A stretch of DNA of 64,000 nucleotides, from NCBI GenBank assembly GCA_965279525.1, contig CBDIIB010000005.1:128001-192000 (forward strand), written 5' to 3'. The notes under the pieces were generated by a model. That model ran no database searches and was not told the origin of the DNA. It saw only the letters and a program-made list of their open reading frames with translations. This document shows positions 6,535-12,579 of this stretch, piece after piece (position 1 is the first letter of the stretch; each line of letters begins with the position of its first letter). This stretch comes from Tagaea sp. GTDB lineage: Bacteria > Pseudomonadota > Alphaproteobacteria > CACIAM-22H2. Made by a program: the position numbers and the translations under genes.

Positions 6535-7260
6535 GAGCTTTCTCTCCAGTGGCGAAACGTTCGCGGTTCTCGCGAGGTACGGACTTTATAGCACGGAGCA
6601 CCTGGACTGGCAAAAGCCCCGAAAAATCGAGGCCCCGCCGCCCGTCCGCCCGCGGGGCGGATGGGGCATTGGCGGGGCCCGCTTTGCTTTACGGCCTCGG
6701 GGACCGGCCGTTACGCCGGTAGCCCTTCGGCCCGCCCGCGGCACAAACGCTCGGGCGGATCGTGCCGATATCGCCGTCGGGCGGGGCGGGGTCTTGCCGC
6801 AAGGGCGGCTTCGGGGGGTTCGGCATCGCGATCCCGGGTCCCGGAAATCCGCAGCTGTGACGAGACGCCCGATCCGTCCGCGAAAGGCAGCGTCGGCGGC
6901 GCTTGACGTCCATCTTGTGCGCCGGCCTGAAGAAAATCGGATAGGACCGGTGCTTACTGGCTCTTCGGTGGAGTCATGTCGTTTTCGGACACCTCCCCGT
7001 TCGGGTTGCCGATCCGTTTTGCGTCCCTGCCCCGCGACCTCGTGGAGGAGCGTGCGGCGCCGGGGCGCCCGGCCGTCATCGGCGGCCGGTGTCGAATGCG
7101 GATGGATCGGCTTCGCACGCGACAGGAAGACGCTAGCACGAAATCGCGCCCGTTTGGAGTCCGGCGATTCGGAATTTTAGATATATATAGTGTTTATTAT
7201 TAACCGTGCGGCGTCACACGGGACTCACAATTTTTAAGCATCACGTACTACAATGAGAGG

Positions 7261-7647
7261 ATGCTTCCGCGCCTCTGCGTCCTGCTCCTGGCCCTGTGCG
7301 TCCTTGCCGGCGAAACGCATGCGCGGCCCGACTGCCGCGCCATCGACGGCGACACGATCGCGTGCGGCAAGCAGCACGTGCGCATCGTCAATGTCGATAC
7401 GCCGGAGCTGGGTGCGGGTGCGCGCTGCCCGGCCGAAGCGGCCCTCGCCGAACGCGCGCGCCGCTTCACCGCCGAGCAGATCGCCGGCACGAATGTCGAG
7501 ATCCGCCCCGACCCGAAGCGCCCGCACGACCGCTGGGGCCGCACGCTCGCGCGCGTCATCGTCGACGGAATCGATCTTGGCGAAGCGCTGGTCGCCGCCG
7601 GCCTCGCGCGCGCATGGGACGGCAGGCGCCGGCCGTGGTGCCCCTAA
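7261..7647 (+). CDS. Thermonuclease (SNase-like) family secreted nuclease
   Basis: Signal peptide; 'IDGDTI', 'VRIVNVDTPE', 'DRWGRTLARV', 'LVAAGLA' motifs. Confidence 0.9.
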   Translation: MLPRLCVLLLALCVLAGETHARPDCRAIDGDTIACGKQHVRIVNVDTPELGAGARCPAEAALAERARRFTAEQIAGTNVEIRPDPKRPHDRWGRTLARVIVDGIDLGEALVAAGLARAWDGRRRPWCP

Positions 7648-7653
7648 GCCCCG

Positions 7654-7731
7654 TCAGCGCCAGAAGATGATGATCAGGATCACGATCGGAAGCGGGATGC
7701 CGAGGAGCCAGAGAAGTACGCCGCGTCCCAT
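7654..7731 (-). CDS. 25-aa hydrophobic small membrane protein MGRGVLLWLLGIPLPIVILIIIFWR (absent from the ORF track)
   Basis: AGGAG RBS at 7740-7744, ATG 7731, TGA 7654-7656, GC3-rich codons, single TM-like stretch. Confidence 0.8.
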   Translation of the reverse strand: MGRGVLLWLLGIPLPIVILIIIFWR

Positions 7732-7842
7732 GATTTCGACTCCTGCTGCCTGAATTCGTCCGCCGGAAAATCGGCGTCGGCATCTGGTAGCAGGGAGCGG
7801 CGGGGCCGGAGAGGCCCGGAAACTACGCAGGCCGCGCGGCGA

Positions 7843-8235
7843 TCAGTAATAGGCGTCGCCGGTCAGGCGTTGCGAGATCCACCAGATGTTTCCGGCACCG
7901 TCGCGCACGCCGCCCTGCCGGTCGCCATAGGGCATGTCGCCGACCGCCATTTCGAGACGCGCGCCGGCGGCAAGGGCGCGGCGCATCGTCGCGTCCGCGT
8001 CGGCGACATAAAGATAGTAGGCCGCCGCCATCGCCGGATAGGCGGGCGTGGCGCCGCTGACCATGAAGTTCGAAGCGCCGATCGCGATCTGGGCGTTGGC
8101 GAGGCTGCCGTCCGGCCGGGCGGTCCGTCCGACCGTGACCGCACCGAACGCCCGTTCGAGGAACGCGATGAACGCGTCGGGATCGGCGACGAAGAAATAC
8201 GGGACCACGCTGGCGAAGCCGGGCGGAGCCGTCAT
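7843..8235 (-). CDS. VOC/glyoxalase (PhnB-like) family protein
   Basis: 'SVVPYFFV.D....IAFLERAFGA', 'YLYVADADATMRRALAAGA', 'DMPYGDRQGGVRDGAGNIWWI'. Confidence 0.9.
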   Translation of the reverse strand: MTAPPGFASVVPYFFVADPDAFIAFLERAFGAVTVGRTARPDGSLANAQIAIGASNFMVSGATPAYPAMAAAYYLYVADADATMRRALAAGARLEMAVGDMPYGDRQGGVRDGAGNIWWISQRLTGDAYY

Positions 8236-8253
8236 CGCGATTCAAGCCGGCAG

Positions 8254-8307
8254 GAGGAAAATGGCGCGCCCGAAGAGATTCGAACTCCTAACCCTCAGAT
8301 CCGTAGT
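8254..8307 (-). repeat. att direct repeat: displaced 3' half of tRNA-Arg plus 8 nt
   Basis: 54-bp exact copy of 12495..12548 (GAGGAAAATGGCGCGCCCGAAGAG...CAGATCCGTAGT). Confidence 0.95.
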
Positions 8308-8352
8308 TGATGTATTGGCATTGTTTCGGCGTTTCAGACCATTCGCCAAACG

Positions 8353-8715
8353 TCAACTAAGCCGATATTCGTACGACAAGGGCGAAAGCCGCTCGTCTTC
8401 GATTGCTCATACCCAACGTATATCGATGTCGGCACCAATGGCCGATGGCGTTTCGCCGTCGTGCCTCAAATCAATGTCGGTGACTAGAAAGTGTACGTTC
8501 TGGGAGTCGCGTTCACCATGTACGCGGACCTTATAGCGAGTGAGAATGATCGCAGCACTGGAGGTAGTCGTGCCCTTGACCTATGCAATAGCGATATTTC
8601 CATCTCTTGATAACTCAAGATCGTATGGCTTTTGCAATTTGACATCCCTTACATCGAAGCTCTGCTCCCTAAAGAAATCGACGACTAGAGCCCTTGCGCG
8701 CACCTCAACTGATAG
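8353..8715 (-). pseudogene. DUF3883 (NOV_C-like) PD-(D/E)xK nuclease domain relic
   Basis: Manual translation 'VEVRARALVVDFFREQSFDVRDVKLQKPYDLELSRDGNIAIA*VKGTTTSSAAIILTRYKV...FLVTDIDL...WV*AIEDERLSPLSYEYRLS*'; in-frame stops at 8581-8583 and 8407-8409; 5' boundary approximate. Confidence 0.75.
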
Positions 8716-8716
8716 A

Positions 8717-9589
8717 TTAGTTCTCGACTTCTCGTCGTAGCTGCCCCTTCACTCGATCACACACCATCAACAATTCATCTCTGTGATCGGGATAAAGCGC
8801 TTCGCGATCAACCATTGGGAAGTTGACACTGTTTTCCCAAAACTCACTTTTCCTAAATTTAAACTTCGCCACTAGCCGGCGACCGAAATCTACTTCGTAG
8901 TGGGAATACAGCTGCTTTTGGAGGAACTCTCCGAGCTCGGGATATTCCCCCAGTAGATATCCTTCCTGAAAGTGAGGGCGCAGTGCTTGGGGTGGACATA
9001 CGCCGGCAAGCCTAACAATTTGCAAACCGGCCTCGGCACTAGCTGTAACCACCCCACTCAAATTTGGGACACCTACAACAAAGATATAGCCATTTTTGTT
9101 GTCGCTATCGGAAGCAAACGACGCAGCGATCCGCAGTGAATGGGTCACATCCAGCAAGGGCGTTCTGCAAACTTCATAGTGCTGCAGGATTGACCATCTA
9201 AGAATTCGTTGTCTCTGCAAAAGTTTGAGGCCCGGAAAGCCATGAGTCTCGTACTTCGAAACAAGTTCAACCTCCGCTTCTGCCAAAATTGAAAAGCGGT
9301 CTTGCAATCGTGTTCCGCTCGGATTCAGGCCAATCCCCTTTCGTGGCCGAAATATCGTGGGCTTTAAAGTGGTACGGCCGCGTTGGTTGCGGAAATCATG
9401 ATTTTGGCCCCGATAAAGAAGCAGATAATCTCGATTTCTGAATTGTAATTCCGCAACCTTCTCTACCAACTCAGCGAACGAGCTAACAAACGCCGCTTTA
9501 CTTTCCCGTATTTCCAAACATTGCGCCTTGGCGATTTTGTCTTTGCGCCCGATAAACGTCCAAAGACTTTGATTACCAATTGTTTCCAT
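8717..9589 (-). CDS. FRG domain-containing protein
   Basis: 'LLYRGQ', 'LKPTIFR', 'LQHYEVCRTPLLDVT.S..IA..FA' FRG signature; AT-rich codons. Confidence 0.88.
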   Translation of the reverse strand: METIGNQSLWTFIGRKDKIAKAQCLEIRESKAAFVSSFAELVEKVAELQFRNRDYLLLYRGQNHDFRNQRGRTTLKPTIFRPRKGIGLNPSGTRLQDRFSILAEAEVELVSKYETHGFPGLKLLQRQRILRWSILQHYEVCRTPLLDVTHSLRIAASFASDSDNKNGYIFVVGVPNLSGVVTASAEAGLQIVRLAGVCPPQALRPHFQEGYLLGEYPELGEFLQKQLYSHYEVDFGRRLVAKFKFRKSEFWENSVNFPMVDREALYPDHRDELLMVCDRVKGQLRREVEN

Positions 9590-9828
9590 TTTTCTTACTC
9601 AACTGGAGGCTTGTCGTCTCTAGACTACAATCGTGTTTATATCTTTAAATGTCCCGCGGTTCAGCACGAAGCAATGTCGGCATTGGGTCGTTCCATATCT
9701 CCAAGAAAATAGATTCTACAAACACTCTCTCGAAGGATCGAGCGTATCAGCGAACGCCGCACAAATAAGCCCGCATTCGCCCCTCCAAATTGGCCAGAAT
9801 TTCCATTGGTCATATTCAAAATTATCGA

Positions 9829-12156
9829 TCACTGCCTCTCCCGAAGAGCGGAGAACATGCCACGAATGTCGTCGTCACTCATTTCGACGTTGGTATCCAC
9901 ACCGCGACTCTCAATGCGCCCGTCATCATCGCCATAGTCGGGTATCTCGTTTTGCGCGATTTCTTCATCGAGGCGTTGCAACTCATAATCAAGGCTTAAA
10001 TCAAATTCATTTGCCAGATCTTCCAGTGTGCTTTTAAGGGCGTGCATTTCATCTAACCCAGAGACACTATCGATATCTGCGAGTGCCCCTTGTCGTTGAA
10101 ATTCTTCAACCTGTGACTCTAGTTCTTTTTTCACCTCGTCGTTGGTAACCCCGGAGTCTCTATAGAAGCGAAGAAAGTTCAGCACATAGTCTGAGCTTGC
10201 ACTTTCTATTTCCGAGACGGCCTTAAGCAAATATGCATTGAGCAATTCACTCTTGATTGGAGGATCCATTTTTGTTTCGCCGTGAATCGCCTCGAGCACA
10301 TCGAGCAATCCGCCCTGATCAACGGCATGCTTGTCCCACTTTTGGATAAGGTACCTAGCGCAATCTATGGCTATCTCAAGGTACTTCTGATCCTTGAGAT
10401 GGGCCGCTACCTCAAAAAGGAAATCGACTTTCTCTTCGTAAGTATTGTCGACATGAATGTGTACTGTTGCCCCGGTAGAGGTTGTGCTTTTTGCGAGATT
10501 CGTTTTTCTAAACAGCTTTTCGATTACCTCGACGAAGCTAGACGGGGCGGTTTCGACGGACCGACGCAAGTGGCTATCGCCGTGCTGCAAGGCCAATCGG
10601 TAGAGGTTGACAATTTGTTTAAATCGAACGGCTGTACAAACTAGATCTTCGAAAGACTCGTTACCCTGCAAAAACAATTTTGAGATGAATTCTCGGATTG
10701 ACGGGCTCAGAAATTCGACTTGGTAGCGGCCATAGCGAAAGAAACCTCCATCAAGTTCTTTCAAGGCGTCCTGAAAGTCGTTGGCGGCCGTCGGAAAATT
10801 ATGTTTCTTCGACAAATGGCGATAATACCCGTCAAACACCGAACGCAATTCGGCGGCGGTTGCGCTTCCGAGTGAGTAGTAAACGAGAAGAGCATAGCGA
10901 GATGCGGTTGATATCTGCCGCCTATATGCGTGGGTCCAAATCTCTTCCGGATTGTCTAATAGCTTCTCGATGTATGCAGGATACTCAGCGGGCGGAACGC
11001 TATGCACCCTGTGCAGAGAACTAAGCCACTCTATTTGCCGAGGACTAAAATGCTCATGCGCAATAATCTTCAAAAAGAAATCATTCTGTAGAACGGCATT
11101 TCTATACTCCGGCGGCAGATCGCTGAAAAAAAGGTGATTAAATAAAATCTTGGCCCGCTGACCACGGGTATAATCTTCTAAGTTCAACACACATCGAGCG
11201 TCGATTATCTGACTGTGCGCGAATCGCTCGGAAAACTGGCGGGCACCCTGTAAAATGTGTTCTCTCGTAGTCAGCAGAAATCGTGAATGCTTTGAAGTTT
11301 TCACCATTTCCATAAACGAGATAATTTCGGAATCTTGATTGCGGCCGAAATACTCTGGTCGGTCACCTAAAAAGGTATGCCCCAAAAAATCATCAAAATA
11401 GAATATGCGTTTTGCATCAGGTTGAAATAGTCGCTTTCCCTCCACAATTTCGCCGGTAATAGCTACCGGCTCGTATCCGTTTGCCAAGTACTCAAACATT
11501 AAAATTTCAGCCAAAGTTGTCTTTCCGATCCCAGGGGGGCCAGAAATTACGACAACCTTCTCGCGATCAAGAATGTCCAGCGCGCGGGGCAAGGCACGAT
11601 TTTCTACAAATAGCGGCAACTTCCGCTTGATCCGCTCCACTTCAAATCGTGTCTGACAGATTTCAGCATTGTGCAGAGCTCGCTCGAGTACAAGCGAGCT
11701 CGTCAGCCATAGCTTTAAATGTCGTCGTTCAACATTCTCGTGCCGCGCAAGCAAAGAACCGATATCGTCGGAGCCATAAATGTCTTGCTCCGATTGAATG
11801 AATGGCGAGAGCGCTTTCAGAATCTTCGATTTGTTTAGTGCTGACAGAGAGACCGATGTAAAGACGACGTACCTGGTTGGTGCCAACTTTTTTATCTTTG
11901 GTAGTTCTATCTTTGACAAGTCGCGAAGCAATTTGTCGAAGCCTGATCCTAAGTAGTGCTTACATTGGATTATCGTGACCGACGGACTTGCACCACGGCG
12001 CTCTGATTTTGAATGCTTGGCATATCTAAGATCGATTCCTTGATCTCGGCCGACACGGAATGCTTCGATTGTGACACCCCACTCAGACTGAAGGAGATCT
12101 CGCGCTAATTCCTCTAAGTCGATTGGTGACAATTGAGCTAGGTCATACTTTGGCAT
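9829..12156 (-). CDS. Mrr-like restriction endonuclease fused to nSTAND3-type P-loop NTPase and helical C-terminal region
   Basis: N-terminal 'LEELARDLL...DQGIDLR...IIQCKHY'; Walker A GPPGIGKTT; Walker B 'IFYFDDFLG'; 'FLLTTR' STAND sensor; start set at ATG 12156. Confidence 0.85.
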   Translation of the reverse strand: MPKYDLAQLSPIDLEELARDLLQSEWGVTIEAFRVGRDQGIDLRYAKHSKSERRGASPSVTIIQCKHYLGSGFDKLLRDLSKIELPKIKKLAPTRYVVFTSVSLSALNKSKILKALSPFIQSEQDIYGSDDIGSLLARHENVERRHLKLWLTSSLVLERALHNAEICQTRFEVERIKRKLPLFVENRALPRALDILDREKVVVISGPPGIGKTTLAEILMFEYLANGYEPVAITGEIVEGKRLFQPDAKRIFYFDDFLGHTFLGDRPEYFGRNQDSEIISFMEMVKTSKHSRFLLTTREHILQGARQFSERFAHSQIIDARCVLNLEDYTRGQRAKILFNHLFFSDLPPEYRNAVLQNDFFLKIIAHEHFSPRQIEWLSSLHRVHSVPPAEYPAYIEKLLDNPEEIWTHAYRRQISTASRYALLVYYSLGSATAAELRSVFDGYYRHLSKKHNFPTAANDFQDALKELDGGFFRYGRYQVEFLSPSIREFISKLFLQGNESFEDLVCTAVRFKQIVNLYRLALQHGDSHLRRSVETAPSSFVEVIEKLFRKTNLAKSTTSTGATVHIHVDNTYEEKVDFLFEVAAHLKDQKYLEIAIDCARYLIQKWDKHAVDQGGLLDVLEAIHGETKMDPPIKSELLNAYLLKAVSEIESASSDYVLNFLRFYRDSGVTNDEVKKELESQVEEFQRQGALADIDSVSGLDEMHALKSTLEDLANEFDLSLDYELQRLDEEIAQNEIPDYGDDDGRIESRGVDTNVEMSDDDIRGMFSALRERQ

Positions 12157-12502
12157 TTGCAGCCACTTTCGTCCCAACAGTGTTTAGGCTAGTGCCAATA
12201 GATCAATACCCTGCGAGAGCTTCCATTTTTGAGGAGGTGGAGCCTCTGCATTTCAAATAATGATTGTAAAATCCGCCTCAAGTCCAGACGCTACTGAAAA
12301 ACAACAGTATGTGTGACAGGCACCCTCAAATCAGACTCGCCTGAACCTGTAAGCGCTTAAAGTCTCGCGACTCGAGGCGCTCCAGCCAGCACCAGCGGAA
12401 TTTAAGTATGGAATTGATCAACAACCGCGGAAAAGCGTGGTTGCATCCTGGTTGCTCGCAAGCCGGCCACCAGTAGGAAGCTTGCTAAGCTACTGAGGAA
12501 AA

Positions 12503-12579
12503 TGGCGCGCCCGAAGAGATTCGAACTCCTAACCCTCAGATCCGTAGTCTGATGCTCTATCCAGTTGAGCTACGGGCGC
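12503..12579 (-). tRNA. tRNA-Arg (anticodon ACG), CCA encoded
   Basis: 77-nt cloverleaf: acceptor GCGCCCG/CGGGCGC, D arm GCTC/GAGC, anticodon arm TCAGA-CTACGGA-TCTGA, T loop TTCGAAT. Confidence 0.98.

Follow-up and report, generated by a model that had tools for sequence, protein, structure and literature searches.

The Avs proteins of bacteria are among the systems closest to the locus analyzed here; their common layout consists of an effector, a STAND NTPase and a C-terminal sensor in one polypeptide. In Avs4, the effector is an N-terminal Mrr-like nuclease (Mrr-like nuclease-STAND-TPR). Avs5 proteins contain the Pfam family nSTAND3 (PF20720; bioRxiv 10.1101/2025.07.08.663546), and activation by filament formation has been described for EfAvs5 (PMC11897194). 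For FRG domains, a place in the ADP-ribosyltransferase (ART) superfamily and a possible role as NADase effector have been put forward (PMC9503650). Many other candidate systems have been catalogued, among them 145 PDC systems described as untested in their source preprint (bioRxiv 10.1101/2024.01.29.577857). The window analyzed here, a stretch of 64,000 nucleotides from a Tagaea sp. contig, contains a low-GC islet with a gene for an Mrr-nuclease/nSTAND3 NTPase (hereafter the STAND protein) and a gene for an FRG-domain protein (Table 1). The two genes are neighbours and probably represent two independent defence cassettes, not a two-gene system.

Table 1. Features of the islet and its tRNA-Arg(ACG) integration site; positions are those of the window.
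Feature	Position	Strand	Basis or remark
Islet	8254-12548		4.2 kb, low GC, in 3' end of tRNA-Arg(ACG)
Distal 54-bp direct repeat, att-like	8254..8307	.	duplicate of tRNA-Arg 3' part plus 8 nt
Decayed NOV_C (DUF3883)-like PD-(D/E)xK fragment	8356..8715	-	broken by one TAG and one TGA
FRG-domain protein, 290 aa	8717..9589	-	ORF; Pfam FRG; METIG start
Intergenic spacer, 239 bp	9590..9828	-	
Mrr-nuclease/nSTAND3 NTPase, 775 aa, PADLOC PDC-S73 family	9829..12156	-	ORF, PADLOC, Pfam, alignment
C-terminal domain, residues 441-775, presumed sensor	9832..10836	-	helical, acidic, fast-diverging
nSTAND3 P-loop NTPase core, residues 183-344	11125..11610	-	Pfam PF20720
Mrr-like PD-(D/E)xK nuclease module, residues 1-165	11662..12156	-	Mrr_cat at 7-70
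Non-coding low-GC stretch 5' of STAND gene, within islet	12157..12494	-	
Proximal 54-bp direct repeat	12495..12548	.	overlaps 3' part of tRNA gene
tRNA-Arg, anticodon ACG, integration target	12503..12579	-	ARAGORN

A sequence-only reading of this locus had described two intact, co-oriented genes for proteins of 775 and 290 aa, 239 bp apart, and both open reading frames were confirmed on the minus strand. The STAND open reading frame extends over 9829..12177 and would encode 782 aa from a TTG; with the ATG at 12156 as start codon, the product has 775 aa. This shorter length is supported, because homologues start at the residue aligned with this ATG. Pfam recovered the nuclease domain Mrr_cat (E 4e-8, 33.8 bits vs a cut-off of 21) and the nSTAND3 NTPase (E 8.1e-47, 159 bits vs 27), and the motifs that had been picked out by eye are invariant in 25 aligned homologues, i.e. 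D38-x-G40-I41-D42 and Q64-C65-K66 of the nuclease, the Walker A motif G206..G209-I-G-K212-T-T214, the Walker B residues D255-D256, and T296-T297-R298. Residues 3-164 match PADLOC models of Argonaute-associated proteins (E 4.2e-35). A comparison of the profile with the PDB by sequence gave P-loop matches only (best E 0.011); by structure comparison of the model, the NTPase core shows an AAA+/STAND fold, and Foldseek ranks Avs4, Avs5 and Avs3 highest among PDB structures, with E values from 5e-8 to 4e-7. No Avs model was among the 10 PADLOC families matched at E <= 0.1.

In the AlphaFold2 model (mean pLDDT 79.2), the C-terminal domain consists almost wholly of helices; it is acidic, with a D+E content of 19.1% in residues 441-775 and of 29.1% in residues 690-775. 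It matches no Pfam repeat family at E <= 0.1 and contains no recognised TPR, Sel1 or PPR repeats, in agreement with the earlier description of a helical, acidic C-terminus without evident repeats. Its divergence is pronounced: residues 441-735 share 26.7% identity with homologues vs 58-61% for the N-terminal domains. Among 1.84 billion representatives, 186 hits to the C-terminal domain were found, all of the same architecture, and a search of the ESM Atlas with residues 400-775 returned unnamed clusters only. The presumed sensor region, which had been called unusual, is a non-repeat helical domain that occurs only in this architecture.

The STAND protein thus looks like a nuclease switch of the NLR/Avs type. 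In such a switch, the private, fast-evolving C-terminal domain would recognise a phage-derived trigger, the nSTAND3 NTPase would then drive ATP-dependent oligomerisation as in Avs proteins, and oligomerisation would join the N-terminal Mrr-like PD-(D/E)xK domains, leading to DNA cleavage and abortion of the infection. Alternatively, the protein might be an NTP-dependent restriction enzyme which senses DNA directly (e.g. modified phage DNA) in a manner similar to the type IV systems Mrr and McrBC, instead of a protein-sensing NLR-like switch. The presence of the Mrr_cat nuclease domain, the occurrence of restriction-modification (R-M) genes among the neighbours at some loci, and the RefSeq label 'restriction endonuclease' carried by homologues are consistent with this explanation. 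However, neither Mrr_N nor any other DNA-binding family was matched in the STAND protein with Pfam, the NTPase belongs to the STAND and not to the McrB type, and with 19-29% D+E the variable C-terminal domain has a strongly acidic character that disfavours DNA binding. DNA sensing is therefore unlikely, and we favour a switch of the NLR/Avs type.

Along its whole length, the STAND protein matches the PADLOC profile of the family PDC-S73 (E 2e-155, 517.5 bits, residues 1-768 on positions 1-749 of the 752-residue model), and its gene is thus a candidate defence gene of a catalogued family which may well confer a defence phenotype. A full-text search of the literature found no paper mentioning the name PDC-S73. 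The gene, like the FRG gene, is conserved, and we found 1246 relatives of the STAND protein; the gene is present in a single copy in the whole genome and was found in none of the 20 further genomes of this genus. STAND homologues lack a conserved neighbour: even the largest cluster of neighbouring genes is represented at 3 of 33 loci only. Yet known or candidate defence genes are frequent in their vicinity: at 15 of 32 loci the nearest four or fewer open reading frames within 5 kb include a PADLOC hit at E <= 1e-15, and at 17 of 32 they include none (124 proteins were scanned; the giant open reading frames L023:13774-21237 and L014:10032-15638 were left out). These neighbourhoods, together with the combination of Mrr_cat and nSTAND3 and the Foldseek matches to Avs proteins, support the NLR-like effector-STAND-sensor layout that had been proposed from the sequence.

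Homologues of the STAND gene are also found on 3 predicted viral contigs and on 32 plasmids, 22 of which are conjugative, and in plasmid pAt2 the homologue directly follows repABC. This distribution, as well as the location of the genes analyzed here on a tRNA-inserted islet, would also fit genes that serve the mobile element by addiction, post-segregational killing or the exclusion of competing plasmids, and not by defence against phages. No antitoxin-like partner is conserved beside either gene, however; defence-island neighbourhoods are found at 15 of 32 chromosomal loci, and members of the FRG subfamily occur within R-M operons (see below). A role restricted to the mobile element is thus very unlikely, and an anti-phage function of both genes is the preferred explanation.

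The assignment of the smaller protein to the FRG family, also made by the sequence-only reading, was confirmed. Pfam FRG (PF08867) was found at residues 58-165 (E 4.8e-9, 37.4 bits vs a cut-off of 25), the homologues start at the same METIG in the alignment, and R60-G61-Q62 of the FRGQ motif as well as the QHY motif that had been noted (Q136-H137-Y138) are invariant in 28 sequences. Of the 1657 relatives found, most of the best 120 are 53-62% identical. The protein matches the PADLOC candidate PDC-S15 weakly (best E 2.4e-8, 31.7 bits, residues 30-174 on positions 40-164 of the 276-residue model), and its matches to this candidate are confined to the N-terminal half. Weak matches to PDC-S15 were also obtained for 28 of 28 members of the FRG subfamily tested (best E 2.4e-11), which indicates that the subfamily is not specifically modelled in PADLOC. 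The protein has a Pfam FRG match above the cut-off in common with the PDC-S15/FRG candidates, but existing PADLOC models detect its subfamily of ~285 aa only weakly.

With respect to function, the FRG protein is a predicted NAD-targeting enzyme of ART fold, in line with the published place of FRG in the ART superfamily; it would most likely consume NAD+ or ADP-ribosylate a target during infection. The invariant residues R60, S151 and E209 are proposed as candidate catalytic residues. The FRG profile found no meaningful relative in the PDB by sequence, and an AlphaFold2 model from 28 sequences (pLDDT 54.4) was too poor to judge the ART fold.

The genomic context of the FRG subfamily is informative. 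An hsdM gene lies directly downstream at 21 of 47 loci and an hsdR gene directly upstream at 15 of 42, with both present at 13 of 36, and an FRG homologue on an annotated plasmid is found in the same order, hsdR-FRG-hsdM. Members of this subfamily thus often lie inside type I restriction operons, flanked by hsdR and hsdM, at roughly a third to half of the loci; such nesting in type I R-M operons is the kind of context that, according to the PDC preprint, yielded PDC candidates. In contrast to this habit of the subfamily, the FRG gene in the window lies outside any R-M operon and thus represents an orphan cassette.

The sequence-only reading had gone further and suggested that the STAND and FRG proteins possibly work together as a two-gene system. 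In such a system, FRG might be a second effector or might modulate the STAND sensor. The genes are indeed co-oriented, and the 239-bp spacer between them contains neither a promoter-like nor a terminator-like site, so that co-transcription is possible. Scanning of the islet as a whole found 2 promoter-like sites vs a mean of 4.7 in shuffled sequences and 6 terminator-like sites vs 4.9, which is uninformative on operon structure, and no consensus promoter was found in the non-coding DNA 5' of the STAND gene. An open reading frame of 52 aa within the spacer (9661-9819) was rejected as a gene, as nothing similar was found at other loci and its GC pattern is not that of coding sequence. In the sole other known copy of the exact genes, 96% identical for STAND and 90% for FRG, each protein is encoded on a single contig of 7291 bp, and the pair appears to be kept together there. 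Functional cooperation within the lineage of this islet is thus conceivable; being close kin, however, this copy is not independent evidence for pairing.

Several other comparisons argue against a joint system. No FRG gene is adjacent to the STAND homologue at any of 33 loci from species-representative genomes (0/33); one locus has an FRG gene of another subfamily ~8.5 kb away on the opposite strand, and apparent FRG hits at two loci (L038 and L016) were rejected because they are located on other contigs. Conversely, a STAND gene was found at none of 80 FRG-subfamily loci from metagenomes; 2.5 kb or more of upstream sequence was available for 42 of these loci and as much downstream sequence for 43. 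An FRG-domain gene is present in 2 of the 20 genus genomes, and both lack a STAND homologue. In the class, the search for FRG genes at E <= 1e-10 gave 0 of 400 other genomes, too few for counting co-occurrence. Among the plasmids and viral contigs listed, none is shared by the two genes, with 20 of the 32 STAND plasmid records lying outside this listing. In addition, PDC-S73 is a single-gene candidate in PADLOC, and the usual partners of the FRG subfamily are type I R-M genes. A two-gene system is thus quite unlikely, because each gene has its own catalogued candidate family and the two do not travel together elsewhere.

The findings that had been named in advance as speaking against the pairing include homologues that never co-occur and a match of the pair to an already named system. 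The first is largely what we observed, and the second applies to each gene separately. The statement that no named system has this combination therefore holds for the pair as such, which is unnamed, and not for its parts, as both families are already catalogued as candidates: the STAND gene as PDC-S73 over its full length and the FRG gene, by a weak match, as PDC-S15. It is highly improbable that, in the lineage of this islet, the FRG enzyme has been re-wired to the STAND nuclease to form a new pair that joins DNase and NAD-targeting effectors under the control of one sensor, carried by a cassette which lacks an integrase and is moved in trans by tRNA-Arg integrases. Proximity within a small island is not enough to turn two genes into one system, and the tempting reading of these genes as partners is corrected here in favour of two independent cassettes.

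The islet itself has the properties of a tRNA-inserted island, including repeats of the tRNA 3' end, a deviant composition and variable occupancy in relatives, but it lacks an integrase of its own. The two 54-bp direct repeats are 100% identical and spaced by 4241 bp. The GC content between them is 46-48% vs 61-74% in all other 1-kb bins of the window, and no integrase-like gene is among the open reading frames listed for this interval. No part of the islet is covered among the matches listed in 30 relatives. The tRNA-Arg(ACG) site is empty in one relative (G011), is occupied by a different insert of ~2 kb between two repeat copies in another (G017), and in a third (G012) a tyrosine integrase adjoins a copy of the 54-bp repeat; in this genus, the site is thus a place of turnover for different small cargoes. 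Four sequencing runs, all from one study, contain the islet, and no RNA run with the islet is listed. Downstream of the FRG gene, the decayed fragment matches Pfam NOV_C when its stop codons are read as X (E 0.0021, 18.5 bits, below the cut-off of 22.1); its codon-position GC pattern is still coding-like, and nothing comparable was found close to FRG or STAND homologues at the other loci retrieved. Taken together, the islet was likely acquired by horizontal transfer; besides one decayed gene it holds two anti-phage candidates, each probably a single-gene system independent of the other, and no integrase.

Compared with known systems, the STAND protein has the general layout of Avs proteins. 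Avs4 (PDB 8dgf) is its top Foldseek match (E 5.4e-8); its chains are, however, twice as long (~1540 residues), only 11% of the residues aligned by Foldseek are identical, and there is no profile match. With Avs5 (EfAvs5, PaAvs5), of which the structures 9jap (E 7e-8) and 9nc9 (E 2e-6) are among the best Foldseek matches, the STAND protein has in common the nSTAND3 NTPase and a tripartite layout in which the NOD lies between an effector at the N-terminus and a sensor at the C-terminus. In contrast to Avs5, whose effector is a Sir2 NADase, the STAND protein contains an Mrr-like nuclease and has no Sir2 match, and its C-terminal domain is confined to its own family and lacks recognised TPR, Sel1 or PPR repeats. 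The type IV enzyme Mrr consists of Mrr_N and Mrr_cat, whereas the STAND protein contains only Mrr_cat, located at the N-terminus and fused to a STAND NTPase. No structural difference is apparent from PDC-S73, a computational candidate whose homologues have a fixed length of ~770 aa, an identical architecture and no conserved partner. PDC-S73 thus represents a compact and abundant family that combines an NTPase of the Avs5 type and a nuclease effector with a private, non-repeat sensor that evolves about two times faster than the remaining protein, and these properties recommend it as a tractable candidate in the search for a new phage trigger.

Re-examination bore out the coordinates and gene descriptions of the sequence-only reading, in which an Mrr-nuclease/nSTAND3 NTPase (the STAND protein) and an FRG-domain protein had been proposed to act together against phages. 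The 775-aa start of the STAND protein is supported by 24 homologues that begin at an aligned M-P/S-R-Y. Pfam models placed Mrr_cat at residues 7-70 (E = 4e-8) and nSTAND3 at residues 183-344 (E = 8.1e-47) of the STAND protein and an FRG domain at residues 58-165 (E = 4.8e-9) of the FRG protein, all exceeding the curated cut-off. The nuclease motif (D38-x-G-I-D42, Q64-C-K66) and the NTPase motifs (Walker A with K212, Walker B D255-D256, T296-T297-R298) that had been read by eye are invariant in 25 aligned sequences, and the FRGQ (R60) and QHY (136-138) motifs of the FRG protein in 28. An AlphaFold2 model of the STAND protein (mean pLDDT 79.2) agrees with the earlier description of a helical C-terminus, residues 441-775 consisting of helices and two short hairpins; the region is also acidic as described, D and E making up 19.1% of residues 441-775 and 29.1% of residues 690-775. 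No match to repeat families was found in the STAND protein with Pfam.

The STAND and FRG genes are cargo of a small foreign islet. The GC content is 46-48% at ~8.5 to 12.5 kb, against 61-74% in all other 1-kb bins of the 64-kb window, and the overlap of one copy of a perfect direct repeat with a tRNA gene is a signature of site-specific integration into the tRNA 3' end. No integrase was found between the repeats. The gene remnant following the FRG gene is interrupted by a TAG stop at the expected E of the E-x-K motif and a TGA stop further along; it keeps a coding-like codon-position GC pattern, and its decay is therefore probably recent. Its name is tentative because the match to Pfam NOV_C (E = 0.0021) is under the cut-off.

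Features of the islet and its surroundings (window coordinates)
Feature	Position	Strand	Remarks
ORF	7253-7753	+	no Pfam match
ORF	7823-8245	-	no Pfam match
Direct repeat, other copy	8254-8307		54 bp, perfect
Decayed gene remnant	8356-8715	-	120 codons, directly after FRG stop codon; like NOV_C/DUF3883 nuclease-fold (PD-(D/E)xK) domain
FRG ORF	8717..9589	-	290 aa; METIG start common to homologues
STAND-FRG spacer			239 bp
STAND ORF	9829..12177	-	ATG at 12156, giving 775 aa
Direct repeat, tRNA-overlapping copy	12495-12548		54 bp, perfect
tRNA-Arg(ACG)	12503-12579	-	sole tRNA gene in window

In a DNA search of 30 relatives, 18 of them from the same genus, the matches listed cover the flanks and the tRNA and never the islet. 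A family search detected the STAND gene in none of the 20 other genomes of the genus and an FRG-domain gene in two (both ORFs of ~250 aa), neither of which carries a STAND homologue. The tRNA-Arg(ACG) gene is a recurrent insertion site in this genus, with differing occupants: the site is empty in G011 (L131), in G017 (L128) two copies of the repeat enclose a different insert of ~2 kb whose ORFs belong to no Pfam family, and in G012 (L129/L130) a repeat copy adjoins a tyrosine integrase (Arm-DNA-bind_3 and Phage_integrase domains). Since an integrase is absent between the repeats and the site varies among relatives, the islet is either a remnant after integrase loss or a passenger moved in trans. 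An IS4/5-type transposase fragment is located near the tRNA in G012. The region at 7170-8254, which joins the conserved left flank to the distal repeat, is high in GC; in G011 and another relative, G007, the distance from this flank to the tRNA is just 355-670 bp, so the region appears to be absent there and may also be variable.

The suggestion that STAND and FRG form a two-gene system was not supported by a co-occurrence check run in both directions. Sampling one genome per species yielded 39 STAND loci, 33 of them with a clear homologue; none of the 33 had an adjacent FRG gene, and searching the STAND loci with an FRG-subfamily profile gave no match, even with filters off. With the Pfam FRG model, FRG-domain genes were found in 12 of the 35 whole genomes behind the STAND loci, only one of them inside a fetched 10-kb flank (L025), where it is encoded on the opposite strand, ~8.5 kb downstream, and represents a different, 227-aa subfamily. 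Conversely, a STAND homologue was present at 0 of 80 metagenome loci with FRG homologues 50-62% identical (flanks of at least 2.5 kb upstream in 42 and downstream in 43). STAND and FRG also showed no overlap among the plasmid and viral-contig records listed (12 of the 32 STAND plasmid records). Near-identical copies are known for both (96% identity for STAND, 90% for FRG); as both were found on one 7291-bp contig apiece, of the same source class, they probably represent this islet in a closely related genome and are not independent evidence for pairing. A true two-gene system, with the genes adjacent here and presumably in that relative, is thus quite improbable given the loci surveyed; most likely, STAND and FRG are two independent cassettes.

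The neighbours of FRG homologues clustered as type I R-M genes, identified via Pfam (N6_Mtase and HsdM_N; ResIII, HSDR_N and EcoEI_R_C; Methylase_S). Of the 47 loci with sufficient flank, 21 have hsdM directly downstream of FRG; hsdR is directly upstream at 15 of 42, and both flank it at 13 of 36, usually with gaps of a few bases. On the Paracoccus plasmid NZ_CP067132.1 (L133) the order is type I R subunit, FRG, methyltransferase, NucS-domain protein and S subunit; this operon thus has two embedded genes, FRG in the R/M gap and a NucS-domain endonuclease in the M/S gap. In its usual home FRG may be co-expressed with the type I R-M system; in the window it is orphaned, outside such an operon. 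All 28 members of the subfamily match the models of PDC-S15, a PADLOC single-gene phage defence candidate, weakly (best E = 2.4e-11). FRG has been described as an ART-superfamily domain with the potential to serve as an antiviral effector, perhaps as an NADase (PMC9503650), and the FRG protein is predicted to be, probably, an NAD+-consuming or ADP-ribosylating effector.

The STAND protein matches another such candidate, PDC-S73, end to end (E = 2e-155); a full-text literature search found no mention of PDC-S73. Among 7999 candidates scored, 1246 matched the family at E <= 0.001, and relatives among the matches listed are 41-51% identical, the 96% copy aside. Residues 440-775 alone gave 186 matches (53 at E <= 1e-10) in a search of 1.84 billion representatives; the full-length proteins among them are all ~755-790 aa and match at ~430-770, the others being shorter and of unclear completeness. 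The family has one fixed architecture. Against 23 homologues, the Mrr module averages 57.8% identity and the NTPase 61.4%, whereas residues 346-440 average 49.7% and residues 441-735 26.7%. This is consistent with a recognition domain that evolves fast, attached to a conserved engine. STAND homologues have no conserved neighbour at 33 loci (the largest cluster, an OLD-like ATPase, occurs at three), and their neighbourhoods are defence-gene-rich: a PADLOC match at E <= 1e-15 lies within the nearest four or fewer ORFs at 15 of 32 loci (none at 17), including OLD/GajA-like, type IIG/III/IV R-M, CBASS cyclase, AbiLi, PD-T4-3 and several PDC candidates. Of 32 plasmids with homologues, many rhizobial, 22 are conjugative, and on the Agrobacterium conjugative plasmid NZ_CP048577.1 (L134, 3838-6126) the gene directly follows repA-repB-repC; on several other rhizobial plasmids the homologue is found within the first 7-22 kb of the sequence record. 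These positions hint that a location close to the replication module may be favoured. A place after repABC would suit genes serving element maintenance, a role that we regard, beside these defence-rich neighbourhoods, as highly improbable.

The proposal of an NLR-like nuclease stands as far as the layout is concerned (Mrr_cat, nSTAND3, Avs-like Foldseek ranks) and is not supported for the pairing with FRG. Foldseek against the PDB ranked portal-bound Avs4 first (8dgf_B, E = 5.4e-8), with EfAvs5 (9jap_A, E = 7.3e-8) and Avs3 (8dgc_A, E = 3.5e-7), then SAMD9 and the AVAST5 filament (9nc9), and eukaryotic NLRs after them; TM-scores are just ~0.2 because domain arrangements differ. The modelled fold thus appears to be a STAND/AAA+ NTPase that by Foldseek is closest to Avs proteins, and says nothing firm on the C-terminal domain. 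The mode of action of the STAND protein is probably that of an Avs protein. Going by domain content and Avs precedents, the C-terminal domain private to this family would detect a phage product, the nSTAND3 module would drive ATP-dependent assembly, proximity would activate the Mrr-like nuclease domains, and DNA cleavage would abort infection. The Mrr-like nuclease domain could also belong to a DNA-sensing, NTP-dependent restriction enzyme; with an NTPase of the STAND type and a strongly acidic C-terminal domain, this seems unlikely.

The kind of candidate seen here is already catalogued, and the window adds another member. The PADLOC PDC entries are 145 single- and multi-gene candidates, explicitly untested, that were drawn from genes lying inside BREX, DISARM and type I R-M loci (bioRxiv 10.1101/2024.01.29.577857). 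Mrr-like REase domains are listed among the effectors of NTP-dependent conflict systems (PMC7159879). STAND residues 3-164 (window 11665-12150) match the PADLOC Argonaute-associated models Aga_TIR-PNTD1-PNTD2 (E = 4.2e-35) and Aga_REase-TIR-PNTD1-PNTD2 (E = 2.6e-26), and the effector module therefore appears to be common to STAND and short-pAgo systems. EfAvs5 is reported to be activated via filament formation, with T7 gp1.7 as the activator (PMC11897194). Avs5 proteins are described as combining Sir2, a Pfam nSTAND3 domain and C-terminal repeats (bioRxiv 10.1101/2025.07.08.663546); on that description nSTAND3 is common to Avs5 and the STAND protein of the window, whereas Sir2 and the C-terminal repeats are features of Avs5.
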